Origin: a virus
Lineage: Duplodnaviria; Caudoviricetes
DNA length: 25,043 nt
IMG/VR virus record: IMGVR_UViG_3300026039_000010
Coordinates: 1 to 25,043 of that record
Direction: 5' to 3' (one strand)
Below the pieces are notes generated by a model. That model was not told the DNA's origin. It saw only the letters and a list, made by a program, of their open reading frames with translations, and made no database searches. The position numbers and the translations under genes are program-made. Position 1 is the stretch's first letter; every line of letters begins with the position of its first letter. Of this stretch, positions 3,604-24,300 are shown one piece after another.

Positions 3604-3615
3604 GAAGTGGTAAAA

Positions 3616-4161
3616 ATGCCCGGTGGTAGGCCAAGAAAACCAATAGCATTATTAAAGCAAGAGAAAAAGACACATTTGACCAAAAAACAGATCGCAGAGC
3701 GGGAAAAGTCCGAAGTTAAAACCGGCGATAAAATTTTAATCGCGCCGGATTATATCAGGAATGATCTTAATGCTTTCAAAAAATGGAACGAAATCCTTGA
3801 AATTTATAAAGATGTTGGCTTTGTAACTTCGGGAGACGCCGGTTTCCTTGCCCGGTACTGTCTTACCTATAGCGAATATTTGGGATTAGTAGAACGCAGG
3901 AACAAACTAAACTCGATGTATTCCAATTGGGACAAATACGAAGATGTTTTACCGGAAGATTTTCGGGATGCCATAGATGATCTTTTTAAATGTGATTATG
4001 AATTGCAATTAGAAAGCTCAATTAACAAAAAAATGGAATTGCTAATCAAAATGGAAGACCGTTCCTTCCTGAACCCGTTGGCTAAGGTTAAGGGGATACC
4101 GCAAAAACAAGAAGCTCCCAAACGAACCCCCTTGCAACAGCGTGGATTTGGTAATGTATAA
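3616..4161 (+). CDS. terS: Terminase small subunit, P27 family
   Basis: MPGGRPRKP...KTHLTKKQIAERE N-terminus, LARYC and FLNPLAK motifs; directly upstream of TerL. Confidence 0.9.
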   Translation: MPGGRPRKPIALLKQEKKTHLTKKQIAEREKSEVKTGDKILIAPDYIRNDLNAFKKWNEILEIYKDVGFVTSGDAGFLARYCLTYSEYLGLVERRNKLNSMYSNWDKYEDVLPEDFRDAIDDLFKCDYELQLESSINKKMELLIKMEDRSFLNPLAKVKGIPQKQEAPKRTPLQQRGFGNV

Positions 4162-4183: not shown

Positions 4184-6001
4184 ATGAAAAAACGCAAAGA
4201 CCTAATTCTCGAAGAATTAACCGATTATTGTCATGATATCAAAGATAAAAAGATTATAGCCTGTCAAAAGTATATTTGGGCTTGCCAAAGATTTCTAAAT
4301 GATTTAGAACGGTCAGAAAACGGCGATATGCCTTATATATTTAATCCTCAGATATCGTTGACGACTGGGGACTATGACGAATATGGGAAGCCTATAATGG
4401 ACAAATTTTATCCAGTCGACAGATATCTTGAATGGATGTGTTTATTCAAACACAGCAAAGGGGAACTAGTCGGTCAACCGAAAATCCCTGTTATTTACGA
4501 AAAATTTGTGTATGGTAACATTTATGGATGGGTCAATAAGGACACCCATTTAAGACGGTTTAGAAGGTCATATGAGCAATTAAGCAGGAAAAATGCAAAA
4601 TCGCAGGACAAGGGAATCCAGGCGTTATATGAAATATCTGCTTTTGGCGAGCAAATGGCAGAAGCTTATGTGGCAGCAACAAAAAAAGCCGATACAAGAC
4701 ATGTTTGGGGCGAAGCCAAATGGCTTTATAACAATTCTGAGTATTTACGCGATAGTTTTACGTGCAAGTTTGAACAGGATTTAATGCAAGTCGTGATTCG
4801 TCATAAAAAGAGCGGGTCTTTTTTTATGCGGTTGTCCAAAGATGATAAAAAGACTGGTGATGGTACGTGTCCACAGTTTATGTGTCTCGATGAATATCAC
4901 CTGCACGAAACAACAGAATATTATGACATTGGCACTTCCGGTATGAAAACTCGAAAGCAACCGCTCTTATCAATTATTACAACTGCCGGGTTTGACCTGA
5001 GTCATCCGTGTTATGCAGTCGAGTATGAATATGTTTCTAAAATTCTTAACCCCAATATCGATGTTGAAAACGATAGATATTTTGTCGCTATTTGTGAAGC
5101 TGATTTAGACGAGAACGGGGAATTGGTAGATGCGATTGATAGTGAAGCAATCAGGTTAAAATCAAACCCGATCATCGGCGACACCGCAACCGGGAAAGAA
5201 TCAATTTTGATCGATTTGTCGGAAGCGCTAGACAAGCCCGAGAAAATGCGGGATGTCAAGACAAAAACCTTTAACATCTGGATAAACGAACGAACTGCCG
5301 GATACATGAATATGGAAAAATGGAAAGCTTGTGGCGCGATGACAGAAAATCCTTTTCCTGATGTTAAAGGAATGAAGTGTTTCCCCGGAATCGACCTTTC
5401 GGCAACTTTAGACTTAACAAGTACTGGTTTTGATATTCCTCTGGGTGAAGAAAGATATGCTTTGCTATCTCATTCGTTCATGCCGGAGGAAACTTACTTG
5501 AAAAGATTAAAAGAACGCAAAATTCCATTCGATCTATGGAAATCCCAAGGGTGGTTAACCATTACTGATGGGGCGGAAGTGGATTATCATGTTGTTTTAA
5601 AATATATTCTTGATATGTTTGAAAAATATCAATGGCCAAAAGATGAATTTTGTTTTGACCGAGCAATGGCAACATGGTTAAAACAAGAATTAGAAAGCAA
5701 TGGTTTCCCAAAACCGGTTGATATTTACCAAGGATATCGCGATCTAAGCGAACCAACCAAGGATTTAAGGGCAAAGGTTTACAGTGAGAAAGTAATGCAT
5801 GATAACAATCCGGTTTTAAACTGGGCCATGTCGAATGCCATTGTTCGGAAAAGTCCTAATGAATCAATCATGCTCGACAAGGAAAGAACCAAAGAAAAAA
5901 TCGACCCAGTGGCGGCTATTATTAACGCTCACAACCGCGCTATGGTTAACGAACCGGCTAAGAGATCTATCTATGAGGAAAGAACGTCATTTAGGCTATA
6001 G
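4184..6001 (+). CDS. terL: Terminase large subunit
   Basis: Walker A-like SRKNAKS, Walker B CLDEYH, coupling motif ITTAG, nuclease GIDLSATLDLT and KIDPVAA. Confidence 0.97.
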   Translation: MKKRKDLILEELTDYCHDIKDKKIIACQKYIWACQRFLNDLERSENGDMPYIFNPQISLTTGDYDEYGKPIMDKFYPVDRYLEWMCLFKHSKGELVGQPKIPVIYEKFVYGNIYGWVNKDTHLRRFRRSYEQLSRKNAKSQDKGIQALYEISAFGEQMAEAYVAATKKADTRHVWGEAKWLYNNSEYLRDSFTCKFEQDLMQVVIRHKKSGSFFMRLSKDDKKTGDGTCPQFMCLDEYHLHETTEYYDIGTSGMKTRKQPLLSIITTAGFDLSHPCYAVEYEYVSKILNPNIDVENDRYFVAICEADLDENGELVDAIDSEAIRLKSNPIIGDTATGKESILIDLSEALDKPEKMRDVKTKTFNIWINERTAGYMNMEKWKACGAMTENPFPDVKGMKCFPGIDLSATLDLTSTGFDIPLGEERYALLSHSFMPEETYLKRLKERKIPFDLWKSQGWLTITDGAEVDYHVVLKYILDMFEKYQWPKDEFCFDRAMATWLKQELESNGFPKPVDIYQGYRDLSEPTKDLRAKVYSEKVMHDNNPVLNWAMSNAIVRKSPNESIMLDKERTKEKIDPVAAIINAHNRAMVNEPAKRSIYEERTSFRL

Positions 6002-6013
6002 GAGGGCAAAATT

Positions 6014-6298
6014 ATGAATTGTATTGCGGGAATAATTGTTCCGGGAACGATTTTTATTATTTTAATTGCTGCGGCTATATGTTGGTCGACTTTTTTGAAA
6101 GAGGATGAGTTATACGAGGTTAAGCGACCCGACGAACTTCCTAAACATCATTGCCCTAAATGTGATCGCATTTTAATCCCGCTTCCACCGAACCCGAAAG
6201 GCGAATTTCAATGTATGCATTGCCATACTTATTATCATTTAAAATCAGGAGGTTCCGAATGCAAGACTTCCGCTGCGCCAAATGTAACAAAAAACTAG
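6014..6298 (+). CDS. Small protein with N-terminal transmembrane helix and Cys4 zinc ribbon
   Basis: GIIVPGTIFIILIAAAICW hydrophobic run; CPKC...CMHC; GGAGG RBS. Confidence 0.7.
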   Translation: MNCIAGIIVPGTIFIILIAAAICWSTFLKEDELYEVKRPDELPKHHCPKCDRILIPLPPNPKGEFQCMHCHTYYHLKSGGSECKTSAAPNVTKN

Positions 6299-6399
6299 CC
6301 GAGTATGAGGGGAATGTTAAACTAAGCATCAAATGTCCGCGATGTGGGTCATTAAATTTAAAGGAGGAATCACAAGATGATCAAAACCGATCAATATGA
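6259..6399 (+). CDS. com: Mu Com-family zinc-ribbon RNA/DNA-binding regulator (46 aa)
   Basis: MQDFRCAKCNKKLAE...LSIKCPRCGSLN matches the Com pattern RCxxCxKxL...IKCPRCxxxN; AGGAGG at 6247-6252 before ATG 6259. Confidence 0.85.
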   Translation: MQDFRCAKCNKKLAEYEGNVKLSIKCPRCGSLNLKEESQDDQNRSI

Positions 6400-6535
6400 A
6401 TTAATGTGGATAGAATTAAAAGAAATGCTTCAAGAAATTAGAATATATGGAAACTGCGTTCAATATGGAATTTGCAGTGGTCTTATCGAAAAAATGGAAG
6501 AAATCGAAGAAAAGCATAAAGAGCCAAACGAATAA
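6377..6535 (+). CDS. Small hypothetical protein (52 aa, MIKTDQYELMWIELKEMLQE...KHKEPNE), not in ORF track
   Basis: Hand translated; AAGGAGG RBS at 6361. Confidence 0.7.
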   Translation: MIKTDQYELMWIELKEMLQEIRIYGNCVQYGICSGLIEKMEEIEEKHKEPNE

Positions 6536-6547
6536 AGGAGGCACAAG

Positions 6548-6754
6548 ATGACCGAGAAAGAGGAAGCTCTATTAAAAGAGTACTTTGAAATAAATTTTTC
6601 TGACGTATTATCGATTTATAGAGGATATGAAAACATATCCGATTCCGGTAGAAAATATGTTTATGATTCTTTTGGCTTCAAATGGTATGTGTTACATTGT
6701 TACTGTCGAGAACTGAAAACGCAAATTGTAGATGCTTTAAAATTTTGGAAATAA
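6548..6754 (+). CDS. Hypothetical protein (68 aa)
   Basis: AAGGAGG RBS, ATG start. Confidence 0.7.
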   Translation: MTEKEEALLKEYFEINFSDVLSIYRGYENISDSGRKYVYDSFGFKWYVLHCYCRELKTQIVDALKFWK

Positions 6755-6761
6755 ATATTTA

Positions 6762-6777
6762 GAGGCTCCAGAAGCCC
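6762..6777 (+). promoter_or_regulatory. Candidate Com-binding RNA site / antiterminator hairpin GAGGCTCCAGAAGCCC
   Basis: GGCT-ccaga-AGCC mini-hairpin with bipartite GARNNYC repeats; overlaps the 5' arm of the downstream terminator. Confidence 0.5.
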
Positions 6778-6803
6778 ACTCCTTAACCGGGGTGGGCTTT
6801 TTT
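6772..6803 (+). terminator. Intrinsic terminator between the terminase/Com block and the portal block
   Basis: AAGCCCACTCC-ttaacc-GGGGTGGGCTT stem running into a T-tract (TTTTTTGTTGTTTT). Confidence 0.8.
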
Positions 6804-6826
6804 GTTGTTTTAAAGGAGGTTTTACC

Positions 6827-7012
6827 ATGCTTAAATTACCTAAATTAAACCTAAAAAGGCCGCATTTTACCGATGAATTCAAGCAAGAATTAGGTCTAAT
6901 CGGCTTTTTTTGTTTATTCGGAGTTGGTCTATATCTTATAAATATATCTTTGTGTTTCATTATTTGCGGTTTAATGGGAATATTCTTTTTTTACCCGAGA
7001 GGAGATAGATAA
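6827..7012 (+). CDS. Small two-helix membrane protein of the type commonly found just before HK97 portals
   Basis: LGLIGFFCLFGVGLYLINISLCFIICGLMGIFFF hydrophobic hairpin; AAGGAGGT RBS; position. Confidence 0.8.
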   Translation: MLKLPKLNLKRPHFTDEFKQELGLIGFFCLFGVGLYLINISLCFIICGLMGIFFFYPRGDR

Positions 7013-7683
7013 TGCCTAGAAAAACTCAAGATTTAACTAATATAAAATTTGGAAAATTAAAGGTTATTAACAAATGTGGAAAAGATCATCGTGGAAACTA
7101 TTTATGGAAATGTCTTTGCGATTGTGGCAATGAACATGCAGTCAAAGGATATAATTTGTTAAGCGGCAAAACCAAAAGCTGCGGGCAGTGTTCAAAAAAT
7201 AAATTTGAAATTAATGGTAATCATGTAATTGGTCTTACCACCAAAGGAGATGAATTTTATTTTGATATTGATGATTATAAAATTATTTCTAAGCACACTT
7301 GGTGGATGGATGAACGAGGATATATAAGATGTGAAATAAAAGGGAAAATAGTTTTTTTACATAGGTTTTTATTAAAAACACCAAAAGATAGAAATGTAGA
7401 TCACATAAATGGAGACCCTTATGATAATCAAAGAAAAAATCTTCGTCAATGCAATGATTTTCAAAATATGAAAAACCGTAAAAAAAGCAAACTCAATACT
7501 TCATCTATTTTCAAGGGTGTCTCATGGGCTTCATATGCAAATAAATGGCGTGCACAAATAAGTTTTGACAACATAAATAAATATTTAGGTCTTTTTGAAA
7601 ATGAAATTGATGCAGCAAAAACATATGACAAGGCGGCAATAAAATATCATGGTGAATTTGCTAAATTAAATTTCCAGTTATAA
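7012..7683 (+). CDS. HNH homing endonuclease with N-terminal Cys-rich domain and C-terminal AP2 DNA-binding domain
   Basis: DLTNIKFGKL...WKCLCDCGN...KSCG; LHR...VDHINGDPYDNQRKNLR (HNH); FKGVSW...KWRAQI...YLGLF...AAKTYDKAAIKYHGEFA (AP2). Confidence 0.93.
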   Translation: MPRKTQDLTNIKFGKLKVINKCGKDHRGNYLWKCLCDCGNEHAVKGYNLLSGKTKSCGQCSKNKFEINGNHVIGLTTKGDEFYFDIDDYKIISKHTWWMDERGYIRCEIKGKIVFLHRFLLKTPKDRNVDHINGDPYDNQRKNLRQCNDFQNMKNRKKSKLNTSSIFKGVSWASYANKWRAQISFDNINKYLGLFENEIDAAKTYDKAAIKYHGEFAKLNFQL

Positions 7684-11142: not shown

Positions 11143-11607
11143 ATGAATATTGCAGAAAGATGCCATGTAGTTAATATTTTGCCGCCCCAAAGCATTACCG
11201 CGGCCGTTACCTCCGATGTTTTTAGTCTTAAAAATTATGCTCATGCGACAATTATTGCTCAAGCCGGATCGACCAATGCCGACGCCGGGAACATTACCAT
11301 CGAAGAATGCGACGATTTCACTCCAACCAACGACACCGCCATTGATTTTCGCTATTATGCCGAAACTACCGCCGCTGGCGACACTCTTGGAGCAAAACAA
11401 AATGCGGTAGCGGCCACCGGAATTGACGTTTCTGCAAATGATAATATTTTTTATGTTATCGAAATTGATTCCGCTCAATTGTCCGATGGCTATCCGAATT
11501 TGATTCTCAAATGGTCTATTCCTGGCGGGGCAACTTTGGTTAGCGCGGTAGCTGTTTTAAGCGGTTCCCGGTACGCCGAAGATCAATCAGCTACGGCTAT
11601 AGCGTAA
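11143..11607 (+). CDS. Putative capsid decoration/accessory virion protein
   Basis: Ala/Thr/Asp-rich beta-type sequence directly after the MCP; role inferred from position. Confidence 0.6.
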   Translation: MNIAERCHVVNILPPQSITAAVTSDVFSLKNYAHATIIAQAGSTNADAGNITIEECDDFTPTNDTAIDFRYYAETTAAGDTLGAKQNAVAATGIDVSANDNIFYVIEIDSAQLSDGYPNLILKWSIPGGATLVSAVAVLSGSRYAEDQSATAIA

Positions 11608-11612
11608 ATGCT

Positions 11613-11774
11613 ATGAATATTAAATTATTAGAAAGCTGGGGAGGTGCCGACTTTGGCACCTCTCTTTCGATCGATGATGTAACCGCACAAAATTTAATTG
11701 ATCGCGGAATCGCCGAAAAAACTTCTGCTCGAAAGAGTGCTGCGAAAAGCAGTGGAAAGGATGAAAACAAATGA
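11613..11774 (+). CDS. Small protein (53 aa, MNIKLLESWGGADFGTSLSIDDVTAQNLIDRGIAEK...), not in ORF track
   Basis: Hand translated; G...D...A..LI..GIA pattern with a basic tail is typical of small post-capsid genes; stop overlaps the next ATG (ATGA). Confidence 0.7.
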   Translation: MNIKLLESWGGADFGTSLSIDDVTAQNLIDRGIAEKTSARKSAAKSSGKDENK

Positions 11775-12265
11775 GTATTGCAAATGTAGGAAGCCAATGG
11801 GTAAGCGGCGTTTTACAGTTTTTTAACAAAGCCACAAAGGCCGCGATTTTCACAATTGATTCCGATGGAGACATCGAATTATCAACCGGCCAGCATATTA
11901 AGGGCGAACGGTTTACTGTCAACCTTTACAACTTTGCAGCGGCCACGGTGGGGCAACCGTTTTTTATTGCTCCTGCCGCTTGCAAAATCGTGTCTGCTTA
12001 TGAACGTCATATAACCGTTTGTGATGCAGCCGACACAATGACTATTGAAAAATTAAATACCGGAGAAGCACCGGGGGCGGGCGATGTTGTTCTGGGAACC
12101 GCCTTTATTCTTAATAGTACTGCTAATACACCTGTCAGCAGTGCGGCGGTTGCTACTGGCGCTGAATCACTGGTTGCCGGAGACACCCTTTGCACTAAGT
12201 TTGCATCCGGTGACGGAACGAATTATGCCGGGGCCGTAATTACGGTTACAATGGAATGGCTATAA
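11771..12265 (+). CDS. Putative head accessory/decoration protein
   Basis: 164 aa Ala/Thr/Gly-rich beta-sandwich-like ORF in the head module. Confidence 0.55.
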   Translation: MSIANVGSQWVSGVLQFFNKATKAAIFTIDSDGDIELSTGQHIKGERFTVNLYNFAAATVGQPFFIAPAACKIVSAYERHITVCDAADTMTIEKLNTGEAPGAGDVVLGTAFILNSTANTPVSSAAVATGAESLVAGDTLCTKFASGDGTNYAGAVITVTMEWL

Positions 12266-12292
12266 GGGCGGATTATACCGCCCTTATTATTT
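12262..12292 (+). terminator. Terminator-like hairpin
   Basis: ATAAGGGCGG-attata-CCGCCCTTAT perfect 10-bp stem followed by TATTT. Confidence 0.7.
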
Positions 12293-12308
12293 GGAATGAG
12301 GTGATTAG

Positions 12309-12476
12309 ATGGCCGCAACATTATTAACAACTTATAACAAATATATCGGGTTATCAACCGATACCAAACCGACGGATAATATAAAAATTGGGTCTCGTTT
12401 TCTTGAGACCGACACCGACAAAAAGTTTATTTTTAATGGAACAAGTTGGGACGAAATTACCGGACTTGAATTTTAG
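12309..12476 (+). CDS. Small virion-associated protein (55 aa) with GLSTDTKPT...GSRFLETDT...W motif, not in ORF track
   Basis: Hand translated; GAGGTGA RBS; motif typical of short phage fibre-like modules. Confidence 0.75.
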   Translation: MAATLLTTYNKYIGLSTDTKPTDNIKIGSRFLETDTDKKFIFNGTSWDEITGLEF

Positions 12477-12487
12477 GTGGCGATATA

Positions 12488-13096
12488 ATGTGGAAAAAAC
12501 TTAATCCAAAATTTGTATTAAAAACAGCCCCAACCGTTGAACCGATTACGCTTACCGAAGCCAAAGATTTTTTACGTATTACCGGGACGGTCGAAGATGA
12601 TGTATTGAATTCTTTGATTGTCGCCGCCCGTAACTATGCCGAGGACTACCAAAACAGGCCATTAGTAACCCAAACTTGGGAATTATGGCTTGATGATTTC
12701 CCGCCACATGATTGCATGCCAATCCGGTTAAAGGCCGGTTTGCAGTCTGTTGCAAGCGTTAAATATTACCCCGATGGAGGAATCGAAACAACATTCGGTT
12801 CCTCTAATTATATCGTTGATACAACTGATTATGTTGGTAAAATTGTTTTAAATGAAGATTACCAATGGCCGTCTGAGGATTTAAGGGCTGCGAATGGTGT
12901 GTATGTGGAATTTATCTGCGGGTATCCAATCAAAGATATCGGATTGGCAACTGAAGATCCTGCCGGAAATGTTCCTGAAATGACTAAAACAGCTATGAAA
13001 ATTTGGATATCATATCATTATGAAAACCGCGAAGGGATTGATTTACCCAAAGCGGTTAATATTTTATTGGGGCTGAATCGGGTGAGCACGCTATGA
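12488..13096 (+). CDS. Head-tail connector (HK97 gp6 / phiE125 gp8-like)
   Basis: PTVEPITLTEAKDFLRI, LIVAAR..AE....R.LVTQTW, ISYHYENRE. Confidence 0.92.
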   Translation: MWKKLNPKFVLKTAPTVEPITLTEAKDFLRITGTVEDDVLNSLIVAARNYAEDYQNRPLVTQTWELWLDDFPPHDCMPIRLKAGLQSVASVKYYPDGGIETTFGSSNYIVDTTDYVGKIVLNEDYQWPSEDLRAANGVYVEFICGYPIKDIGLATEDPAGNVPEMTKTAMKIWISYHYENREGIDLPKAVNILLGLNRVSTL

Positions 13097-13407
13097 ACCC
13101 AGGAATCTTGCGGGATAGAATTGCTATTCAAGATTACACCACGACATATAACATTCTTAACGAACCGATCAAGGCATGGACTGATTTTGTAACGGTTTGG
13201 GCCGAAGTTATGATTAACCAAGGCCGCGAGTTTTGGGGTGCCAAAAAGCTTAATGCGGAATTGTCGGGGATTATCAAAATCCGTTTTAATCATGATATCA
13301 CTGAATTAATGCGGATTATTTATGATGGCGAAACCTATCAAATAACAGCAGTAATTCAAGACGTTAAAAAATCTTGGACTGAATTGCATGTAAAGAAGGT
13401 GGAATAA
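13093..13407 (+). CDS. Head closure protein / head-tail adaptor (SPP1 gp16-like)
   Basis: MNPGILRDRIAIQ, W..FVTVWAEV, GREF, IRF...I...MRI. Confidence 0.92.
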   Translation: MNPGILRDRIAIQDYTTTYNILNEPIKAWTDFVTVWAEVMINQGREFWGAKKLNAELSGIIKIRFNHDITELMRIIYDGETYQITAVIQDVKKSWTELHVKKVE

Positions 13408-13880
13408 TGGCTAATGTTTCTATATCGACAAGTGATATCAAAGCCGTTATCCAAGAGCTTGAAAAATGGGGGAAAAAACTAGGCGACGGTATGGAAGCTC
13501 CAACAAAGCGTGGAATGGATATTATTGCAAAAAAAGCCAAAAACAAAATTCATAATATTTCCGGTGAAACCGCTGCATCTATTAAAACCAAAATCGACGG
13601 CAAGGGAAGAAATTATGTTGTTGGTCATATAGGGACTATCGATGGAACCAAGGAGGAAGCAATTCGGGCTAATTCATTAGAATTTGGTCACTCGCATCCC
13701 GGAGAGGGACGTGACAGCTTTGGAAAGCAGCAATGGACTAGCGACCGCGAGGGCGGCGCAGACAGAGTAGAAGCTCACCCCTTTATACGTCCCGCCTTAA
13801 AGGGTTCCAGACGCGTTGTAACCGCTGAATATGAAAAAGAAATACGAAAAATTTTAGGTGGTGACAGCGGTGGAAATTGA
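13407..13880 (+). CDS. HK97 gp10 family neck/tail-component protein
   Basis: SG....SI, LEFG, AHPFIRPAL motifs; position. Confidence 0.88.
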   Translation: MANVSISTSDIKAVIQELEKWGKKLGDGMEAPTKRGMDIIAKKAKNKIHNISGETAASIKTKIDGKGRNYVVGHIGTIDGTKEEAIRANSLEFGHSHPGEGRDSFGKQQWTSDREGGADRVEAHPFIRPALKGSRRVVTAEYEKEIRKILGGDSGGN

Positions 13881-14274
13881 CGTAGCAATAATTACATATT
13901 TGTTGTCTTATTCCGGCTTAACTGCGCTTGTCAGTAGCCGGATTTTTGTTAATGGTACAGTTCCGGAGAACGTTACTTATCCTTATGTTTCTATATTTTT
14001 AGTCAATGGTCAAGATGAGGAATGTTTTATAGAAAGCCCAGATTTTGCCGAAGACACATTTCAATTTACAAGCGCCGCATTGTCTAAAATCGATTCAATT
14101 AACGTTTCCAGGCAGGTTAGAATGGCCTTTAAGGACTACTCCGGAGTTATGGGCGGAACCGGAGGGGTAAATGTTCAGGCAATATTGCAAGATGGCCGAC
14201 GTGATGCGGTTGAAAAACGCAGTGACGGGACGGCCATTTTTTATAGAGACGAAGATTTTATTTTTCAACATTAA
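13870..14274 (+). CDS. Tail terminator/completion protein (DUF3168-like)
   Basis: YLLSYSGLTALVSSRIF...P....YPYV; GTG start behind AGGTGGTGA; position before the tail tube. Confidence 0.85.
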   Translation: MEIDVAIITYLLSYSGLTALVSSRIFVNGTVPENVTYPYVSIFLVNGQDEECFIESPDFAEDTFQFTSAALSKIDSINVSRQVRMAFKDYSGVMGGTGGVNVQAILQDGRRDAVEKRSDGTAIFYRDEDFIFQH

Positions 14275-14293
14275 TTAAAGGAGGAATTTTAAA

Positions 14294-14698
14294 ATGGCTA
14301 CAGCAGGAAAAAACGCAAGTTTATGGGTCGGCGATTCTTTGATTAAAGTTGCCGAAGGGACGGAATGCTCGATAACGGTAAATGGTACGACTATTGATAC
14401 CACTAATTTTGATTCGGGGGAATGGAGCGAATTTATTAACAGCGTGAAGGATTTTAGCTTGTCGCTTACTGCCAATTTTAAAGCGACTGACCCCGCCCAA
14501 GTTGCAATTATGAACAATATTATTACCGCCAGTCAGGACGAGTATCCATTCGAGTATCGGTTGACATCGGCTGCTGCTCCTAATTTCTCGGGTGATGTCA
14601 TAACTGAAAATTATTCCGTGTCAACTCCGGTGGCGGATAAAATCACATTAACTGCAAGCCTAAAAGGGGTTGGAGCATTGGAGTTTACGGCATCTTAA
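14294..14698 (+). CDS. Major tail tube protein (TP901-1/lambda gpV-type fold)
   Basis: TIDTTNFDSGEWSEFI...KDFSLS, FSG..I...YSVSTPV...ITLTASLKGVGAL; strong RBS. Confidence 0.9.
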   Translation: MATAGKNASLWVGDSLIKVAEGTECSITVNGTTIDTTNFDSGEWSEFINSVKDFSLSLTANFKATDPAQVAIMNNIITASQDEYPFEYRLTSAAAPNFSGDVITENYSVSTPVADKITLTASLKGVGALEFTAS

Positions 14699-14711
14699 GG
14701 AGGTGTTTTGA

Positions 14712-15854
14712 TTGGCTACGCCTGGAAAAGTAGGACGAGTCCTAATAAAATCAAGCGCTTCGGCGGTTGCATTTACCGACGAGGCAACGGGATCAAGTGC
14801 CGGATATAAACGATATACAATAACTGATTCGACTAAAGCATATTGGGATAAGGATACTGCAATTGTCGTTGAAGTTGACGATGTAGTTGTAGCGTCCGGA
14901 TATTCAATCGAATATCCCGGCGGAGTTATTGTTTTCGATGCCGTACAAGATTCCGATGCAGTTGTGACGGTTTCCGGTAAATATTTTGTCGTTGAGCAAT
15001 TGGCCGGGTTTTTTAATTGGTCATTGACGGTTAACAATACCACAATTGATGCAACGTCATTTACAAGCGGCGAATGGTCAGAATTTGCGCTTGCGACAAA
15101 AAACTGGGAAGCAACCGCCGAAAAGTTTTGGGCCTCGACCGATGATTTTAGTCAACGAATGGGCGAAGAGGTCATAATTGTATTATATTGTGATTTCGGA
15201 ACGGTCAAGACTAGATTCGAAGGTTACGCAGTTATTCAAAGCGACGAGGTAAGCACACCGGTCAACGAATTAATTAATGATTCGATTTCATTCAAAGGAT
15301 TTGATGGCGTTTATTTTAGGAATGGATTCGACCCTGTCCAATTATTAATTTCCGATTCATTTGACCGCGCTGACAATGCTTCAAGCTTGGGAAATACCGA
15401 TACCGGGCAAACGTGGGTAACATTTACCGGAGTCCCAAGAATTATCAGCAACCAAGCAAGCGCCACAACCGGAATTTATAGAGGATACATCGAAACCGGG
15501 ATTACTGATTGCGTTTTGTCGGCAAAAATTGTTGATGTTGATGCCGATGGAGCCGCGTTAATGTTTAGGATTGTCGATGTTGACAATAGATATTATGTAG
15601 CGGCATATCCCGCATCTTTGATTTTTGGTAAATTTGTTGCTGGAGCGCAAACCGCCGTAACTACAATCGCATTAGCTTTTGCCGAGAATGAAATAGTGAA
15701 AGTTGTTGTCAATGGTACTTCAATTAAAGCCTATGTAAACGGTACTTTACAGATTGATGTAACTGATAGTAGTTTAACGACCGGTACTAAATGCGGAATT
15801 GGTCTAGGGACGAGCGACGATTATTTAGATGATTTCAAAATTGAGGCTATTTAA
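14712..15854 (+). CDS. Second tail-tube paralog with an inserted N-proximal domain and a C-terminal lectin/ConA-like domain
   Basis: SLTVNNTTIDATSFTSGEWSEF and VSTPV...SISFKG align with the upstream tube protein; C-terminal DSFDRADNASSLG...YLDDFKIEAI beta-sandwich; TTG start behind GGAGGTG. Confidence 0.75.
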   Translation: MATPGKVGRVLIKSSASAVAFTDEATGSSAGYKRYTITDSTKAYWDKDTAIVVEVDDVVVASGYSIEYPGGVIVFDAVQDSDAVVTVSGKYFVVEQLAGFFNWSLTVNNTTIDATSFTSGEWSEFALATKNWEATAEKFWASTDDFSQRMGEEVIIVLYCDFGTVKTRFEGYAVIQSDEVSTPVNELINDSISFKGFDGVYFRNGFDPVQLLISDSFDRADNASSLGNTDTGQTWVTFTGVPRIISNQASATTGIYRGYIETGITDCVLSAKIVDVDADGAALMFRIVDVDNRYYVAAYPASLIFGKFVAGAQTAVTTIALAFAENEIVKVVVNGTSIKAYVNGTLQIDVTDSSLTTGTKCGIGLGTSDDYLDDFKIEAI

Positions 15855-15860
15855 GAATTT

Positions 15861-15882
15861 GGGCGGCGTAAAGTCGCCCTTT
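15861..15882 (+). terminator. Terminator-like hairpin after the tail-tube genes
   Basis: GGGCGGC-gtaaa-GTCGCCC then TTT. Confidence 0.5.
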
Positions 15883-15900
15883 AAATTTAAGGAGGGGGCA

Positions 15901-16131
15901 ATGATGTTTGTTTCAGCTGATAATCCGAAAACCGGTCGAGCAACAGTGCTGTGCAATGGAAAACCATTATCATATTGTTACGCAGCGGATTCCGATTTAG
16001 GGATAGCCCTATGTTTTGCTGTCAACGAAAAGGGAAAAGTTTACGCAGATCATGAAACAAAAAACTTTAAAAAAAATTTAGTTCAAGGTAAAATCGAAAT
16101 TTTGAATATAAAGGAGAGACGGCAATGTTAA
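15901..16131 (+). CDS. Hypothetical protein (76 aa) inserted in the tail module
   Basis: ATG 15901 behind AAGGAGG; overlaps the chaperone start. Confidence 0.7.
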   Translation: MMFVSADNPKTGRATVLCNGKPLSYCYAADSDLGIALCFAVNEKGKVYADHETKNFKKNLVQGKIEILNIKERRQC

Positions 16132-16493
16132 ATGCAGTTGATTTTAATTATTTCGGAAAACCACGTCATTTAAAATTTGACATTAACGCCATGGGCGATT
16201 TCGAACGGGAAATGAAACTCAGTGTTATGGCAGCCATGAGCGCAGAACGTTTTGGGCTTGACGCCACCAGGGTGCTGCTATGGGCTGGATTAAAACACGA
16301 AGATCAGTCTCTGACTCCATATAAAATAGGGAATTGGATTCAAAAATACATTGTCGACAATGAAGTTGGTTTGATTGAAGCATTAACTACGTTTCAAGAA
16401 CCAATTTTGGAGGCCATGCGTCTAAGTAAAATATTCGGCGAAATTAAAACCGATGATGAAGAATTGGGAAACGCGGGAGCGGAGGAAGTATAA
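16125..16493 (+). CDS. Tail assembly chaperone (lambda gpG equivalent)
   Basis: LKFDINAM...E, R.LLWAGLKHED..LT motif; ends ...ELGNA at a slippery site; precedes the TMP. Confidence 0.9.
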   Translation: MLNAVDFNYFGKPRHLKFDINAMGDFEREMKLSVMAAMSAERFGLDATRVLLWAGLKHEDQSLTPYKIGNWIQKYIVDNEVGLIEALTTFQEPILEAMRLSKIFGEIKTDDEELGNAGAEEV

Positions 16494-16510
16494 AACCTTA
16501 CCTCCGCTTT
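16466..16510 (+). other. Programmed -1 ribosomal frameshift signal: G GGA AAC plus stimulatory hairpin
   Basis: In-frame XXXYYYZ heptamer at 16466-16472; 5-nt spacer; AGCGGAGG(16478-16485)/CCTCCGCT(16501-16508) stem. Confidence 0.88.
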
Positions 16511-16828
16511 TGTGATTGGGTCGAGGACGAAGAATCTTTTGCATATGGAGCTTTAGGGCTTACGCCGTATGAATTTGGTTGTCTGACATTTGGCGAGTAC
16601 AAGGCAAAAAAAAGGGGATTTTTTGAAAATCAAAATAACTATCTCAAACAGCAATCATGGTTGATCGGGATGATGGCAGCAAGAGCAATAAGCGCGAGCG
16701 AAAAGCATCCCTATCCCCCGCTTGATAAATTTATAAACAACGAAGAAGCCGAGCAAGAAGAAACGGACGAAAAGCTGTTTAAATTGGCGCAGGAAAAGGG
16801 AATTGAAATCCCGGAAGGGGTGGTTTAA
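16472..16828 (+). CDS. -1 frame extension of the tail chaperone (lambda gpT equivalent; fusion about 234 aa), not in ORF track
   Basis: Open -1 frame RGSGGSIKPYLRFCDW...ALGLTPYEFGCLTFGEY...GIEIPEGVV* ending 1 nt before the TMP ATG; LGLxPxEFxxLT is typical of gpT-like segments. Confidence 0.88.
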   Translation, partial: RGSGGSIKPYLRFCDWVEDEESFAYGALGLTPYEFGCLTFGEYKAKKRGFFENQNNYLKQQSWLIGMMAARAISASEKHPYPPLDKFINNEEAEQEETDEKLFKLAQEKGIEIPEGVV

Positions 16829-16829
16829 T

Positions 16830-19800
16830 ATGGCACAAGCTGGGAGCCTGTGGATTAAGCTTGGTCTTAACTCAAAATCATTTAATACCGATCTAAAAAA
16901 AGCCGAGCAGCAAATGAAAGCATTTAGTAAAAATATAGGCGCATTAGGTGCGACCATGACCAATGCGTTTACAATTCCCCTCTTGGCAATTGGAGCGGCG
17001 GCACTTAAATCATCTCATGATATAAACAATGCCTATTCTACGATTAGAACTGGAACGGGAGCCACCGGGACGGCGTTAGAACAACTTAAAAAAAGTTTCA
17101 ATACTGTTTTTTCCAATGTACCGAGTTCGGCGGCAGAAGCCGGACAAGCTATTGCCGATTTGAGCACGAGAACAGGGCAAACCGGAAAGGCATTAGAAAA
17201 ATTAGCAATTCAAGAATTGAATTTGGCACGAATACAAAAGACCGACATTGCTTCAACCGTTGCCTCTACAACTCGAATATTCGGAGACTGGGGCATAGCA
17301 ACCAACGAGCAAAGCAGAGCTTTAAATTATCTTTTCAAGGCGTCACAAGCTACCGGCCCTAGTGTTCAGCGTATCGGTGAGTTAATAGTCCAATATGGCG
17401 CTCCTATGCGTCAAATGGGGTTTAGCTTCGAACAAGCCGCGGCTTTAATGGGTAAGTTTGAAAAAGAAGGCGTCAACACTGAAACTGTCATGTCATCTTT
17501 CCGAATTGGGCTAATCAAACTATCTCAAAGTGGCGAAAATATACCCGAAACTTTTGCTAGAGTGATTGAGGCAATTAAAAATGTAGGATCGACTGCAGAA
17601 GCCAATGTAATGGCGGCAGAAATATTTGGTAAACGAGCCGGCCCTGATATGGCCGCGGCAATACGCGAAGGTCGGTTTGGGATTAATGACTTAATTAAAA
17701 GTCTTAATAGCAGCCGTGAAACCATTAATAAAGCTGCCGAAGACGCCTTGACCTTCGGCGATAAAATGAAACGCATGGCAAATAAAGCCGAAGTGGCTTT
17801 TGCTCCTGTTGGCAGCGCACTGGAAAAAGCGTTCGAAAAAATGTTTCCTGCCGTTGAAAAATTGTTGCAAAAAATTGCAGATTTAGCCGAATGGTTTGCC
17901 AACTTAAGCCCCAAAATGCAAGAAAATATTATTAACGCCGGTTTGTTCGTTGCAGCAGCTGGGCCAATGTTAACTATTATTAGCAAATTAGCCGCAGGGA
18001 TAAAGGGGTTAGTTGAGGCGCTGGCATGGTTGGCTAGTGGCGGGATCATTAAAGGTATTAAAGGGATAGGAACCGCGTTAAGCACAACAAAAACATCAGT
18101 TGTTTTGCTAGCTAAATCGTTTAGTTCCTTTTTGGTCGGAGGCGCGATCATTGCCGGTTTTATTGCTCTTGCAGCGGCAATAAGCGAATGTATCAAACAA
18201 GAAAATATTTTGATGCAAAAGCAAAAAATTTCCGATACGTCGTTAGGGCAATTGACCGATCCAAAGAAAATTAAAGAAGCACTAAAAGTCGAACAAGAAA
18301 AAAATAAACTTTTAGCCGAGCAAGTTGCCCAATCGAAGGGAATTGTAGCTAGTTATCGCGGAGCTGATACGCCTTATTCCCGAGACGCCGAAAAGGGGTT
18401 GGCTAAAGTTGAAGCTGAAAAGGCCACGTCTGATATACGACTTGCAAAATTGAATGCAATGGCTTATCCAAAACCGAAGGCCAAAACGCCAGAGGTTGAA
18501 ACGCCAAAAATTACTAGCACTACGACATTATTCCCGGAAACTGAAAAATCAAAAACTCCCGCCGATATCATCAAAGAATATGGCGAAGCTTTAACCGAAA
18601 TTAAAAACAAAGAATCGGCAATGACTTCCCTGTTTGACGAACCAGCGGCCAAGGCGGATTTATTGCTTTCTAAAATTCAGGAGCTTTCAGCAATTGATCC
18701 CAGCAATAAAGTTTTAAAAAGCTGGATTACCGACTATAAAACCATCACCGACGATATTGAAACAGCCAAAAAGCTCGAAGAAGATCGGCTTGAACAAGAG
18801 AAAAAAATAACAGAAGAGCTTGAAAAGCAAAACAAGCGGCGCGAAGACGCTATAAGCTACATGCAAGAGCTTGCCGATGCGGCTGAAACCGCCGGACAGC
18901 CAGAAGGGCTTGAGTCCGATAAAACTTGGAATGAACAAATAAAAAAGCTTAATGAAAAGTTTTATGTGCAACAAGCGACGACTCAGGAAGAATATAATGC
19001 GTCAAGAGCCAATATTGATAAGATTTGGGCCGCTAATCATGAAAAAGAAGCCACGGATGCATGGCAGTCTGAACTTGATAAATACACTGATGCTATTACT
19101 AAACAAATGCAACTCGATCAAGATTTAACCAAAGATCAAAAGAAACAAATCGAACAACGGCTTGCAAACAGGCTTTTGGAGCTAGACCCAAACACTCCTG
19201 AGTATGACGCGACTTTCGACATATACAAAAATTTAGGGACGTCCAACTTGGCGAGCAGTGACATATTTGGCGTTCGCTGGCAAGCCGGTCTTGCAGACGG
19301 AATTAAAAGCCTTCAATCATTTGGTGATACCGTCCAACAAATATCATCAAGCATTGCATCCAGTATGTCGTCAGCTTTTGAAACGGAATTTTTTAACATT
19401 TTTCAAGGTGAGTATTCAAATCTTAAAGAAATGTTCTCCAGTCTTGAAGATATTGTCGCTGATTTCCTAAATTCAATCACTCAAAACATTAGCAAAATGT
19501 TAGCCAATATGGCGACGCAGCAATTAATGAGCTGGATTAGCTCGTTGACTGGTACCGCCGCAAGTGTTGGGTCAGCCGCAAGTGTTGGTGCGGGCTCGGT
19601 TATCGGAACAAGTGTTGGGTCGGCCGCGAGCATTGGGGCGGGTTCGGTTATATCTGGAGCGCTTGCAGGGGGTGGTTCGGTATCATCGAACAACGCCTAT
19701 CTTGTTGGCGAAAAAGGGCCGGAATTATTTGTACCATCATCTTCTGGTTCTGTCATTGCCAATTCCCAACTAGCGGCAATGAATCAAGGTTCCGGTGGTT

Positions 19801-19979
19801 CGGGCGGCGGAAACGTGTCGGTCAATGTTATTAATAGCACCGGGACACAAGCAACTGCCAAAGTAACATCTAAAAAGAGCGATTCTACTGGAAACCAGGC
19901 CATTACAGTAGTTATGGAAGCAGTTCGAAAAAACACCGGAGGAAGCAGGGATTTCTTTAGAGCTTTAGGTAATTCGTGA
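16830..19979 (+). CDS. Tail tape measure protein
   Basis: About 1050 aa Ala-rich helical protein; MAQAGSLWIKLGL start, IFGKRAGP, hydrophobic mid segment, C-terminal AGGGSV...YLVGEKGPELFVP. Confidence 0.95.
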   Translation: MAQAGSLWIKLGLNSKSFNTDLKKAEQQMKAFSKNIGALGATMTNAFTIPLLAIGAAALKSSHDINNAYSTIRTGTGATGTALEQLKKSFNTVFSNVPSSAAEAGQAIADLSTRTGQTGKALEKLAIQELNLARIQKTDIASTVASTTRIFGDWGIATNEQSRALNYLFKASQATGPSVQRIGELIVQYGAPMRQMGFSFEQAAALMGKFEKEGVNTETVMSSFRIGLIKLSQSGENIPETFARVIEAIKNVGSTAEANVMAAEIFGKRAGPDMAAAIREGRFGINDLIKSLNSSRETINKAAEDALTFGDKMKRMANKAEVAFAPVGSALEKAFEKMFPAVEKLLQKIADLAEWFANLSPKMQENIINAGLFVAAAGPMLTIISKLAAGIKGLVEALAWLASGGIIKGIKGIGTALSTTKTSVVLLAKSFSSFLVGGAIIAGFIALAAAISECIKQENILMQKQKISDTSLGQLTDPKKIKEALKVEQEKNKLLAEQVAQSKGIVASYRGADTPYSRDAEKGLAKVEAEKATSDIRLAKLNAMAYPKPKAKTPEVETPKITSTTTLFPETEKSKTPADIIKEYGEALTEIKNKESAMTSLFDEPAAKADLLLSKIQELSAIDPSNKVLKSWITDYKTITDDIETAKKLEEDRLEQEKKITEELEKQNKRREDAISYMQELADAAETAGQPEGLESDKTWNEQIKKLNEKFYVQQATTQEEYNASRANIDKIWAANHEKEATDAWQSELDKYTDAITKQMQLDQDLTKDQKKQIEQRLANRLLELDPNTPEYDATFDIYKNLGTSNLASSDIFGVRWQAGLADGIKSLQSFGDTVQQISSSIASSMSSAFETEFFNIFQGEYSNLKEMFSSLEDIVADFLNSITQNISKMLANMATQQLMSWISSLTGTAASVGSAASVGAGSVIGTSVGSAASIGAGSVISGALAGGGSVSSNNAYLVGEKGPELFVPSSSGSVIANSQLAAMNQGSGGSGGGNVSVNVINSTGTQATAKVTSKKSDSTGNQAITVVMEAVRKNTGGSRDFFRALGNS
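19557..19656 (+). repeat. Imperfect 48-bp tandem duplication with a nested 18-bp unit in the TMP
   Basis: CAAGTGTTGGGTC starts at 19561 and 19609; encodes SVGSAASVGAGSVIGT/SVGSAASIGAGSVISG. Confidence 0.85.
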
Positions 19980-19989
19980 GGTGATTTAA

Positions 19990-20352
19990 TTGGCTAATCC
20001 AACTTTTCCCACTTTATCAAGAAAACCGGCATCAATTAGTTTTGGGATTGAAGATCCCGGTTTGAAAACGGATATGTCAGATGGCTATTCGGTAAGCAGG
20101 GCGCGATTCACAAGATCGCGCTTTACTTTTACAGTTAATTATTCGGCAATGACATACGCCGACAAAGAAGCGATCGAGGATTTTTACCGGGAAACAATTT
20201 ACGGATCGGCGCTTGCATTCAATTGGACTTGCAATGATCCAAGTTCCAAATATTATAATACTGTTTATGCCGTCAGGATGACAGAAACCCCGGAAATGAC
20301 ATTTGTTCAGCCTCACTGGTGGAGCATTCAGCTCGTCATGGAGGAGATATAA
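19990..20352 (+). CDS. Distal tail protein (lambda gpM-like)
   Basis: DGY..SRARFTRSR..F.V.Y, F.W motifs; 120 aa directly after the TMP; TTG start behind GAGGTGA. Confidence 0.8.
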   Translation: MANPTFPTLSRKPASISFGIEDPGLKTDMSDGYSVSRARFTRSRFTFTVNYSAMTYADKEAIEDFYRETIYGSALAFNWTCNDPSSKYYNTVYAVRMTETPEMTFVQPHWWSIQLVMEEI

Positions 20353-20966
20353 TGCCAAATGAATTGACGCTATTACAAAGGCTTGAAAAAAACCGTTTAT
20401 CGTCGGGCGGCGCTTGGATTATCTTACTTGATATTAATGTCAATGATATTTATTTTGTGAAGGTTTGCAATAATAATGAGGATATAACTTATGACGGGGA
20501 TGTTTACGCTGCCTTCCCTTTTTCGATGGAAGTCATAACTCTTGAGGATAGCAAAGGCGAAACAAACGAAGTTAGCGTTAAGGTCTCAAATCTTACCGGG
20601 ATCATCATGAATTATATCGAAGAAACCAACGGCGCTATTAATTCGACCATTACTATCAAAGCTATTAGCTCAAAACATTTGGAAGAAAGCCCCGCGTTTG
20701 AAGCGACGATGAAAATAGCCTCCGTGAGTTATGACGATTCTTGGATTGAACTGAAATTATCGGCTGACTATATTACATCATTTAGAATCCCAATGCGGAC
20801 GTATAAACGGGATTTCTGTGATTACCAATTTAAAGGCGTTGAATGCGGATATAATGGTTCAGAAACCGAATGTGATCGGAGCCTAAAGCGTTGTCGAGAG
20901 CTTGACAACGAAATCCGCTATGGCGGCGAGCCGACGATCGGAAGTGGTTTCTATGTTGACGAGTAG
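20352..20966 (+). CDS. Minor tail protein L-like (DUF1833) with C-terminal four-Cys cluster
   Basis: NNEDITYDG..Y.AFPF, VSN; CDYQFKGVECGY...CDRSLKRC...N..RYGGEP matches the lambda gpL Fe-S motif. Confidence 0.87.
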   Translation: MPNELTLLQRLEKNRLSSGGAWIILLDINVNDIYFVKVCNNNEDITYDGDVYAAFPFSMEVITLEDSKGETNEVSVKVSNLTGIIMNYIEETNGAINSTITIKAISSKHLEESPAFEATMKIASVSYDDSWIELKLSADYITSFRIPMRTYKRDFCDYQFKGVECGYNGSETECDRSLKRCRELDNEIRYGGEPTIGSGFYVDE

Positions 20967-21345
20967 TTTAAACGATTTGATCGGCGCTCCATTTGTCGAT
21001 GGTGGAACGGGTCCGGGCTATGATTGTTGGCATTTGGCGATGGAAGTATGGCGGCGTTTAACTGGGCAGGAATTACCGGATTACCGGATTCCGTGCCATA
21101 GCTCAAACCGGATCAGCGCTAAAATCAAAAGTGAAGCAGCAACTAAATATGAAAAAATTATTAATCCACCAGTTCCGGCACTGGTGGTTTTTAAATTTAA
21201 CGATCCGATCTATGCCAACCACATTGGGGTTTATATTGGCGGGTGTCGGTTTATTCATGCACGGGAAAAGACCGGGGTATGCATTGACCGGCTAGACCAT
21301 CCTTATTGGCGCTGCGCGGTGCAGGGATTCTATTTACCGAGGTGA
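20953..21345 (+). CDS. NlpC/P60 tail tip protein (lambda gpK-like, lacking the JAB domain)
   Basis: IGAPF..GG.GPGYDCWHL (catalytic Cys), HIGVYIG..RFIHA. Confidence 0.9.
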   Translation: MLTSSLNDLIGAPFVDGGTGPGYDCWHLAMEVWRRLTGQELPDYRIPCHSSNRISAKIKSEAATKYEKIINPPVPALVVFKFNDPIYANHIGVYIGGCRFIHAREKTGVCIDRLDHPYWRCAVQGFYLPR

Positions 21346-21349
21346 CAAA

Positions 21350-24300
21350 ATGAAATTAACAATAATCAAGAATCCATTCGATAATAATAGCCGTGCTTTT
21401 AAAGATATTGAGCCTAATAAACCTATATTTGAATTGGTCAGGCCATTTATCCCGGATTGCAAGTATGAGATTATTCTTGATGATCGGGTGATTCCTTTTG
21501 AGGAGTCAAAAGCGATTATTCCAAAAGACGATCAGACTTTGGCAATTCGGGCAACAATTGGAGGCAGTAGCAGCTCTAATAAAAATATTTTATCTGCGGT
21601 TGCGAGTTTGGCGTTGGCAATTACAACTCTTGGGGTGGGCTCGTTAATAGCTGGAGGAACGTTTATTGGTTCTGGAATGGTAGCGACCGGTTGGGGAATG
21701 GCTTCGTGGCTGGGAGCATTGGGTGTCTCCCTCGTTGGTGGTTATCTGATGAATTTGTGGTTTGGTGCCGATGATGACGATTCCGAGACCACTTATGACT
21801 GGGGTAGCGTTGAAGCAAATGACCGCGAGGGTGGCGCGGTACAAATGACTTATGGGACAATTAAGGTGGGTGCTAGTGGTCAGGCACAGGTACTAAGTCA
21901 ATATATTACTTATGACGGTAGTTATCAATATCTTAACGTCCTTTTATGCGGTGGCGAGGGACCATGCGACTATACCGGAGATGGTGAAAACGATAATTGC
22001 ACAGGAATCAGTAATATTGAAATCAATGACAATGCTATAGCTAATTATGATGATGTTATTGTTTATAAACGCGCCGGATTAAATAATCAATCTATAATCC
22101 CCAACTTTGATGATTCCTATGATGTTAAAAGCCTATCCTATGAGTTGGCATACGATCCGGATGAAGAATCAGAATGGAAAACTGATCAAACATATGGTGT
22201 CGGAGCGGGGCTAGAAATCGTATTTCAATTTCCATCCGGATTATATCGCGTAAAGGACAGCGGTTCTTTAGCATCCACATCCGTAATTATTCAATCACAA
22301 TATAAACTTGTGGCTGATTCCGATTGGACGGATTGGGATACTTGGACAATTAGCGCCAAGCAAAACGAACCTCTGTACATTGTCAAACGTCTCGACAACA
22401 TAACCGAGGGACAATACGACGTCAGGGCGCGTTGCACGTCAAAAAGCGGGACTTCCACTTCATATTCGAACGCCACATACTGGATTTCGGTGGCAACAAT
22501 TACCTATGATAATTTTACGAGACCAAACAAGGTTTTATTGGCCATTAAAGCTCTTGCGACCGATCAACTATCCGGAAATGTCAATGTGACCTGGAATCAA
22601 ACGCGCAGCTATGTATATGTATGGGTTCCGGACGACGAAACAAATCCATGGGGTTCTGGATCATATATTCAAAAACCCGCCAACAATCCGGCTTGGGCTT
22701 GCTATGATATTATACACGGATGTTATAGACTCTATAACATCAATACTTCGGCATATGAATATGTAATTAAGCGCATTGCGGCGAATAGAATTTTATATGC
22801 TGACTTTAAACAATGGGCTGATTTTTGCGACGAATATGAAATAACCTGCGCTTATTTTGTAAACGAAACTCAAACACTTTGGGATTCTTTAAGTCCATTG
22901 GAAACCATCGGACGCGGAAAAGTGCTTCCTTTTGGGACGCATTTAGGAGTATTGGCAAATTTTCCGGGCGATGTTGTCCAAAAATTTAATTATTCTAATA
23001 TTATTGCTGAAAGTTTTCAAGGCGAATTTGTCGGGCAGAGTGACCGGGCGAATGCTCTAGAAGTATCATTTTTAGATGCGGATAGGGAATTCAAACGTCA
23101 TTATTTCCCAGCATATGGCACCGACTATAACGAAGCGGAAACGGTTAATCCCACATCGATATTTTTACAAGCTTGCGATAGTTTGCCGGTGGCTTGGAGA
23201 CATGCGCAATATCAATTACGACTAAATAAATATCTTTATCGGTCGGCAAAATGGCAATGTGATGTCGACTCCATATCATGCCGGGTTGGTGATGTTGTCG
23301 GTGTAACAACTCCCAAATGGGGTACCGGAGGACGAATTGTAGACGTCGGAGATAATTGGATCGAAGTCGAAAAGACCATCGATGCATTCGGGGAAGTCAT
23401 TGATGGTGTTGAACGAACCCCATTGGCGACCTATATTGTCAAGATTACGCTTTCTGACGATACGATTATTACAAGAACAGTTCGGCAATTAATAAGTTGC
23501 GCCATATTTGGGCGAGCTGGGTATACCTTGGAAAGCGAAAATGGTTCGATAACCGGAACGCGGATTTATTTTACCGAGGAGTTCGCTAACGACCGGGCGG
23601 TGGCGACATATATCGATGATACCACTTTTACGGTTGTCGGTGATTTGACCGCTAATTTTCCGGCAGATAAAACTGACCTGATTCTTTACGCCGGTTATGG
23701 TGACATGTACCAAACAACCATTGTAAGCAGCAGTTATAACGGGACATTAACAACGGTAGTTTGCGATAACGTGCCGTCAGACATTACGGAAGCGCGGTGG
23801 GGATTTACCAAGCCGGATCAATATAATCTCTACAGTTTCGGGACTAACGGGACGGATTGCAAGCTGTTTCGATTGACAAGGATCGAACGTCACGACGATT
23901 TAACCGCCACTTTGTCGGGATTAGAATATATTGAGGAGGTTTACCAAGACGATACCGAAGTTCCAGAGATTGAAAGCGGGGCAGACACTGGGACGGTGAC
24001 GGTAAGCGTTACGGAACATACGGATCAAGGCGGGGATTTATATCTTGATATCGGTTGGTTGCCTTCGCGAAAGATTTATTATGGCGCATTAGTTTTTATC
24101 AACGGAACGCAGGTTGCTAAAGTTGATATGTCGGTTAATATCTATTCTTACAAGGTAGCGGATATTGGAGAATATATCATTAAAATTGTCACGCTTGATT
24201 ATTTTGGTAATCCATTTGTGAACGCTTCAAAAACGTATACCGTTGTTGGCGAAACCGCGCCCGGAGATGTAACTAATTTGGACATAGCCTATAAAGGCGA

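Follow-up and report, generated by a model that had tools for sequence, protein, structure and literature searches.

The com locus in a phage late region

The window, by which we mean the whole 25,043-nucleotide stretch of DNA analysed here, is a phage late region, given as one strand, that extends from terS through the tail genes, as assigned from ORFs, Pfam and PHROG (Table 1). The earlier note had placed a Com-family zinc-ribbon gene between terL and portal with no mom gene in view, and both points are borne out: profile matches of the encoded protein exceed the curated cut-off, and a Pfam scan of 39 window ORFs gave no match to Mom or a methyltransferase. Alignment with Mu Com revealed 12 identities in 29 residues and the presence of all four zinc ligands, which the available text of PMC3299994 assigns to cysteines 6, 9, 26 and 29 of Mu Com. 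By these sequence criteria, the protein is a member of the Com family (PF10122). A PDB profile search with Com returned generic zinc ribbons and fingers alone, the best at E 2e-4. The gene is preceded by an AGGAGG Shine-Dalgarno (SD) sequence at 6247-6252, and the codons of its C-terminal tail share sequence with the SD and start of the ORF that follows. We considered a second Com site inside the com 3′ end and rejected it, as the stretch corresponds to that SD and start and is altered in the close relative L002. A com variant from another sequencing run (one contig, depth 2.7) carries nine synonymous codon changes and one non-synonymous change, and com appears to be under purifying selection.

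Table 1. Features of the window, with the basis for each assignment
Feature	Position	Strand	Basis or remark
Terminase small subunit (terS), upstream of the predicted gate	3607..4161	+	PHROG 83, E 4e-14; PF05119 under cut-off
Terminase large subunit (terL), upstream of the predicted gate	4184..6001	+	PF20441, PF03354
Small variable ORF overlapping the com start	6014..6298	+	Different in close relatives
Com-family CCCC zinc-ribbon gene, 46 aa	6259..6399	+	PF10122, 39 bits (curated cut-off 22.9); PHROG 6417 (E 3e-11), PHROG 13819
Two small filler ORFs (6377-6535 and 6548-6754)	6377..6754	+	Variable; no family matches
Predicted Com-binding hairpin	6762..6777	+	Motif register, stem pairing, covariation
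Intrinsic terminator with T6 run	6771..6803	+	Fold energy, shuffles
First gated ORF (predicted), small hydrophobic protein	6827..7012	+	Kept in both close relatives; SD GGAGG 6815-6819
HNH-AP2 endonuclease	7012..7683	+	Profile match; missing at the same place in L001 and L002
Portal, predicted gated gene	7716-8969	+	Pfam
Clp-type head protease, predicted gated gene	8966-9823	+	Pfam
Major capsid, predicted gated gene	9820-11097	+	Pfam
Head-tail connector, tail tube, tape measure, minor tail and tip genes	11143..25043	+	Predicted members of the gated unit

A gene with a T5orf172/MUG113 domain lies upstream at 718-1377, and the HNH-AP2 gene is inserted before portal. The starts of adjacent small ORFs (6364-6387 and 6535-6557) have AAAGGAGG..CACAAGATGA in common, which suggests that the filler genes are exchanged in a cassette-like manner; one contig in sequencing run X4 departs to different sequence at 6382 and another at 6540. 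The portal gene is common to the window and its close relatives (87% in L001), the capsid of L002 (L002:3758-4537) diverges from that of the window past the first ~70 residues, and the head protease is longer in L001 and L002 (406 versus 285 residues in the window). We read the capsid divergence and the difference in protease length as a sign of module exchange among close relatives.

A predicted Com-site hairpin within an intrinsic terminator

Positions 6762-6777 read GAGGCTCCAGAAGCCC and divide into GA, stem A (GGCT, 6764-6767), a CCAGA loop (6768-6772), stem B (AGCC, 6773-6776) and a final C. The 4-bp hairpin has the sequence and fold described in the earlier note, with an energy of −4.3 kcal/mol that is not above chance when taken alone (z −1.15; 29/200 shuffles equally good). 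The overlapping terminator folds at −21.7 kcal/mol (z −5.19; 0/200 shuffles as good), its stem occupying 6771-6800 with a 5′ arm to 6782, a loop at 6783-6788 and a 3′ arm at 6789-6797, followed by the T6 run at 6798-6803. Segment C of the terminator (GGCT, 6795-6798) competes with stem A for stem B, and because AGCC pairs with either 6764-6767 or 6795-6798, the small hairpin and the terminator are mutually exclusive, as had been claimed for an AGCC arm that doubles as the terminator's 5′ arm. One detail of the original description is corrected here: the site occupies the second intergenic gap after com rather than the first, since a 12-nt gap at 6536-6547 precedes it. The distance from the com start is ~500 nt, and two small ORFs intervene.

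Within the window, the motif occurs on just 1 of 11 plus-strand hairpins at or below −12 kcal/mol, namely this terminator, and the 6762 site is the only motif match with a full 4-bp stem. Its sequence is identical in two further DNA sequencing runs. A search with Rfam gave no window match at gathering score and only sub-threshold terminator-like matches. The loose pattern GARNNYC-N2-3-GARNNCC is expected by chance 0.48 times per window, and thus the case for the site rests on comparative data; the tighter pattern GAGNNYCCAGARNNCC is expected 0.01 times.

The Com target given in the earlier note, GAG-NN-CC-N2-3-GAG-NN-CC, agrees with the SELEX motif NGAGNNCC(N)2-3GAGNNCCNN given in the available text of PMC6483171. 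According to the same text, the two cores of the motif flank a 3-4 bp stem, Com favours the hairpin over a duplex, the zinc finger alone suffices for RNA binding, and the loop-closing pair is invariably C-G in SELEX for H. sputorum Com. The window site fits 8/10 fixed positions of the motif, a score that native mom shares when aligned in this register (stem AUGC/GCAU, C-N-GA loop). Its loop-closing pair is U-A, a departure from the SELEX C-G.

Several features link the window system to Mu com/mom, including a CCCC zinc ribbon with Cys6/9/26/29, a bipartite GAG-NN-CC-type target that forms a 4-bp hairpin whose loop reads C-N2-3-GA, a regulator gene encoded 5′ of its target in the same orientation, and a small hairpin that overlaps a larger inhibitory one. 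In contrast to Mu, where the inhibitory structure hides a start codon, that of the window is an intrinsic terminator. The predicted targets are virion and lysis genes rather than mom/DNA methyltransferase, the closing pair is U-A instead of C-G, and the site is remote from com, whereas that of Mu lies inside com. By sequence, then, the window system is not com/mom: a terminator replaces the translation structure and the scanned window ORFs include no mom. To our knowledge, Com has been studied so far solely as the Mu translational activator of mom.

Distribution and covariation of the motif around com homologues

The earlier note had stated that its proposal would fail if the motif were not enriched downstream of com homologues, and this comparison revealed both enrichment and terminator overlap. 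In a Com-first set of 83 com loci fetched by protein similarity, the motif occurs within 1.1 kb downstream in 68 (0.89/kb versus 0.036/kb elsewhere on the same strand). A larger set comprised 322 loci, with the window's own contig (L404) left out, of which 321 have com and which together yield 251 distinct com domains; as queries A4 and A5 were made from terminator-class proteins, shares among these 251 domains do not represent family-wide frequencies. The motif with at least three of four stem pairs lies within 2.5 kb downstream of 204/251 domains, the control counts being 22 for the upstream side and 27 for the opposite strand; 47/251 lack a motif in the downstream 2.5 kb by the pattern used. 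It overlaps a hairpin followed by a U-run downstream of 53/251 domains, with no such case upstream and one on the opposite strand, and in 118/251 homologues it directly precedes a start codon, the arrangement known from Mu. Nine of the 53 terminator-overlap loci have a weak hairpin or a nearby start codon and 44 are canonical, of which 33 remain once 11 seed loci found by DNA pattern are dropped.

The association was also approached from the terminators, with seeds dropped, no pairing filter, and terminators taken within ~1 kb downstream of com. GAR...GA occurs in register in 33/64 of these terminators versus 6/362 others, the controls being 3/51 upstream, 1/169 on the opposite strand and 2/142 at portal loci without a com match. 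The motif is absent from the remaining 31/64. A DNA pattern scan found 68 loci, 30 with com and 38 without com at ≥20 bits within 3.5 kb, and a scrambled-motif scan found seven loci, none with com; this pair of scans is only supportive, as the com profile was partly built from pattern-found loci. A phylum-wide search with query A3 matched 83/401 genomes, many through generic zinc ribbons, and was left out of the counts. Among the 19 best A3 loci, a strict motif lies downstream of com in L489, L491 and L498 only, with a weak match in L505. Judged by these sequence comparisons, the pairing of motif, terminator and com is not chance.

Joint presence was further assessed in 80 loci fetched by portal protein. 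A com match occurs in two, L159 (on the same contig as L001) and L185, both with a motif-terminator downstream, and the other 78 all lack a stem-competent motif with T5 after it. Re-examination of the 66 loci in which 1.3 kb of sequence precedes portal showed hairpin-U sites in 10. In one of these, L180, a motif one base shorter lies in a terminator, and directly upstream, at the terL-portal position, is a divergent 64-residue zinc-ribbon gene (L180:3074-3340) missed by the Com profile. It is possible that the L180 protein and site co-vary.

On this evidence, Com sites are bimodal, falling into a terminator class and a start-codon class, and the antitermination predicted here is one of two modes. 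The U-A closing pair of the window occurs in 22/44 terminator-class loci versus 13/124 start-codon-class loci. The idea of a transcriptional switch rather than translational activation is supported for the terminator class (53/251), though not as a replacement of the translational mode, given the start-codon class (118/251). For the window itself, a Mu-like reading would have Com free the SD of ORF 6827 by translational control, the long hairpin being a translation or stability structure and not a terminator. This reading draws on the known Mu mechanism, the many homologues with a motif just before a start codon, and the potential of CUCC (6766-6769) to pair with GGAG (6815-6818), the minimum-energy fold of 6745-6830 indeed pairing CUCC with the SD region. 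We nonetheless consider it decidedly improbable, as at least five T directly follow the stem in all 33 terminator-class loci and the 3′ arm of the window terminator contains no SD. Likewise, no start codon preceded by an SD occurs in the 44 canonical loci at 45 nt or less from the motif, although this was a criterion for their selection.

The short stem also covaries. As the sequences are related, the following shuffle counts overstate independence: 46 distinct motif strings from the Com-first set, taken with no pairing filter, are 94% paired versus 68% when shuffled (0/2000), and 17 distinct A/B pairs from the terminator-first test are 93% paired versus 63% (0/5000). By comparison, 27 chance motif matches in com-less loci are 48% paired. 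In a three-way comparison of 18 distinct triplets, stem A equals terminator segment C at 82% of positions versus 54% when shuffled. In 24 hand-picked rows that were pre-filtered for pairing, 99% of cells are paired versus 68% and both-sided changes number 33 versus 9.8, while two of five measures are not significant (245/500 and 53/500 shuffles). Compensatory changes and G-U pairs are present in the motif stem. Close relatives vary the filler genes and retain the motif, and L002 has replaced the entire upper terminator stem while keeping the motif and base. Within the limits of sequence comparison, this A:B covariation reveals selection on the antiterminator fold.

These observations bear on whether the protein might instead bind the GAG..CC direct repeat as DNA and act on elongating or initiating polymerase. 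The NCBI label 'Com family DNA-binding transcriptional regulator' (on protein P0015) and the 9-10 bp repeat of the half-sites are compatible with such a role, but the stem's compensatory changes and G-U pairs, the confinement of the motif to the coding strand downstream of com, and the RNA binding measured for a family member (available text of PMC6483171) render it extremely improbable.

Predicted antitermination and its energetic constraints

We consider it likely that Com prevents termination by occupying the hairpin on the nascent RNA, in the manner of a BglG-RAT antiterminator. Early transcripts would give terminase and Com and then stop at the terminator, where we infer that termination occurs in vivo at 6798-6803. 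The Com zinc ribbon would then bind the 4-bp GAG-GC-UC-CA-GAA-GC-CC hairpin in nascent RNA and keep AGCC from the GC-rich base of the terminator, and polymerase would continue through to portal, capsid and the tail genes. The position of com, upstream on that strand and transcript, predicts a delay, with head and tail transcription beginning only after Com has built up. The switch would probably sit beneath a conventional late activator in the hierarchy. G003, a close relative, is temperate and carries a gene for a phrog_36 transcriptional regulator, which suggests a two-tier cascade.

Folding calculations place constraints on this scheme. The full terminator is favoured by 9.2 kcal/mol in the window and by a median of 9.9 kcal/mol (range 6.2-18.8) in 33 relatives, in which the fold cost is not correlated with terminator strength. 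As the terminator wins without protein, the default state would be off, and as it is favoured by ~9 kcal/mol, control by Com must be kinetic. With the small hairpin fixed, at that same cost of 9.2 kcal/mol, the upper terminator stem could still form and would end 4-5 nt short of the U-run. For prefixes folded up to 6778-6794, when the 3′ arm is still incomplete, the small hairpin has a predicted probability of 0.54-0.72, leaving a co-transcriptional interval in which Com could bind. The short terminator of the window leaves a narrow time window for Com.

The equilibrium advantage of the terminator also fits another arrangement, in which the terS-terL-com unit ends constitutively at this structure or is leakily attenuated by it, a separate promoter serves the head genes, and the Com site represents a relic or weak modulator. 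A 9/12 sigma-70-like site at 7400-7428 could serve as such a promoter, and the phrog_36 regulator of a relative could drive late promoters. However, the 7400-7428 site lies within the HNH gene missing from L001 and L002, promoter-like counts are at chance level (40 versus 35.2), and L002 has no promoter-like site between terminator and portal. The next start codon follows the U-run after just 18-25 nt, stem A shows covariation with stem B despite having no part in the terminator, and com is apparently under purifying selection. We regard this arrangement as unlikely.

Com might also act post-transcriptionally, through cleavage or stability of the long stem, or in reverse by favouring termination. 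Long perfect stems of 15-25 bp are present in many relatives, and in the Mu model, as presented in the available text of PMC6483171, Com finally melts neighbouring structure. Against this, Com prefers the hairpin form in the same source, a form that excludes the terminator base, and the A:B covariation shows selection for the antiterminator fold. Repression of capsid as Com rises would, moreover, poorly suit phage timing, and we judge this alternative very improbable.

Antitermination by Com would have both parallels and differences with characterized systems. As in the BglG/SacY (LicT)-RAT system (available text of PMC3369931), a weak hairpin lies over the 5′ arm of a terminator and only one fold forms at a time, with stabilization by protein being a prediction here. 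Unlike that system, the window has no CAT or PRD domain by Pfam, a target of 16 nt as opposed to a 29-30 nt RAT, and no evident phosphorylation input; the signal would instead be the level of a phage protein that the same transcript encodes. The ANTAR (EutV) system, as described in the available text of PMC3369931, similarly uses small hairpins with conserved loop residues that overlap a terminator, and one element serves termination at some loci and translation at others. It differs in that the window has a single hairpin rather than two, no ANTAR domain by Pfam and no response-regulator input. By domains and RNA, the window system is neither BglG nor ANTAR, although it is predicted to work like them. 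Lambda Q and N modify polymerase and act over many terminators. The predicted likeness is the use of a phage protein to permit expression of late or delayed genes through read-through of a stop; in contrast to lambda, the one window terminator bears its own site, and one pattern copy was found in each of five records searched.

Other loci and wider distribution of the cassette

Genes downstream of the site match endolysin, terminase, portal, head protease or capsid families in 32/35 pattern-found loci, and no methyltransferase was found among the 79 of 113 listed downstream ORFs that were scanned in these loci. As the downstream families vary among loci, the cassette occupies different points of the late region. 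The cultured Acetoanaerobium phage ANDSL2_ph1 (PP197248.1) offers a perfect match to the SELEX consensus, GAGGACCAAGAGTCCC, inside a terminator at the com end. In two Omnitrophota contigs, the site is ~2.7 kb downstream of com.

We lean, with moderate confidence, towards a broader proposal in which the widespread Com zinc ribbons of ~35 residues are site-specific RNA-binding antiterminators. A portable com-terminator cassette, placed before lysis, terminase, portal or capsid genes in phages of several host phyla, would provide a self-made delay, and one RNA code would be used against either a terminator or a translation-blocking hairpin. If so, the Com family would also be a common phage late-gene switch at transcription termination, temperate phages would have a further level of late regulation beyond the lambda Q paradigm, and the database label 'DNA-binding transcriptional regulator' would need correction. 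A very small protein-RNA pair (~35 residues, 16 nt) could in that case be usable as an orthogonal genetic switch. We found no account of Com antitermination in searches of the openly accessible literature; a whole-word term search of the main text of Weinberg 2017 (PMC5737381) gave 0 matches.

Rfam matches in 15 related loci were limited to a tRNA, int-alpA and GP20-b. The GP20-b match in L268 (2680-2730) was considered as a Com-site element and rejected, as it begins just after the terminator and is a neighbour. Tandem com pairs occur in bacterial genomes at L491 (G380:C15), L487, L488 and L490, and L491 has three motif-terminator units between its two com copies, an array form of the predicted switch. 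In Bacillus phage Slash (L484:2608-2680), the half-sites GAGTGCC and GAGCACC follow com at a spacing of 11 nt, the second at a terminator base, and the annotation shows no gene on that strand over the following 2.4 kb. Start-codon-type sites lie 600-950 nt from com in L003, L006, L008, L010, L012, L017, L019 and L058, from which it follows that the translational mode also tolerates separation of com from its target.
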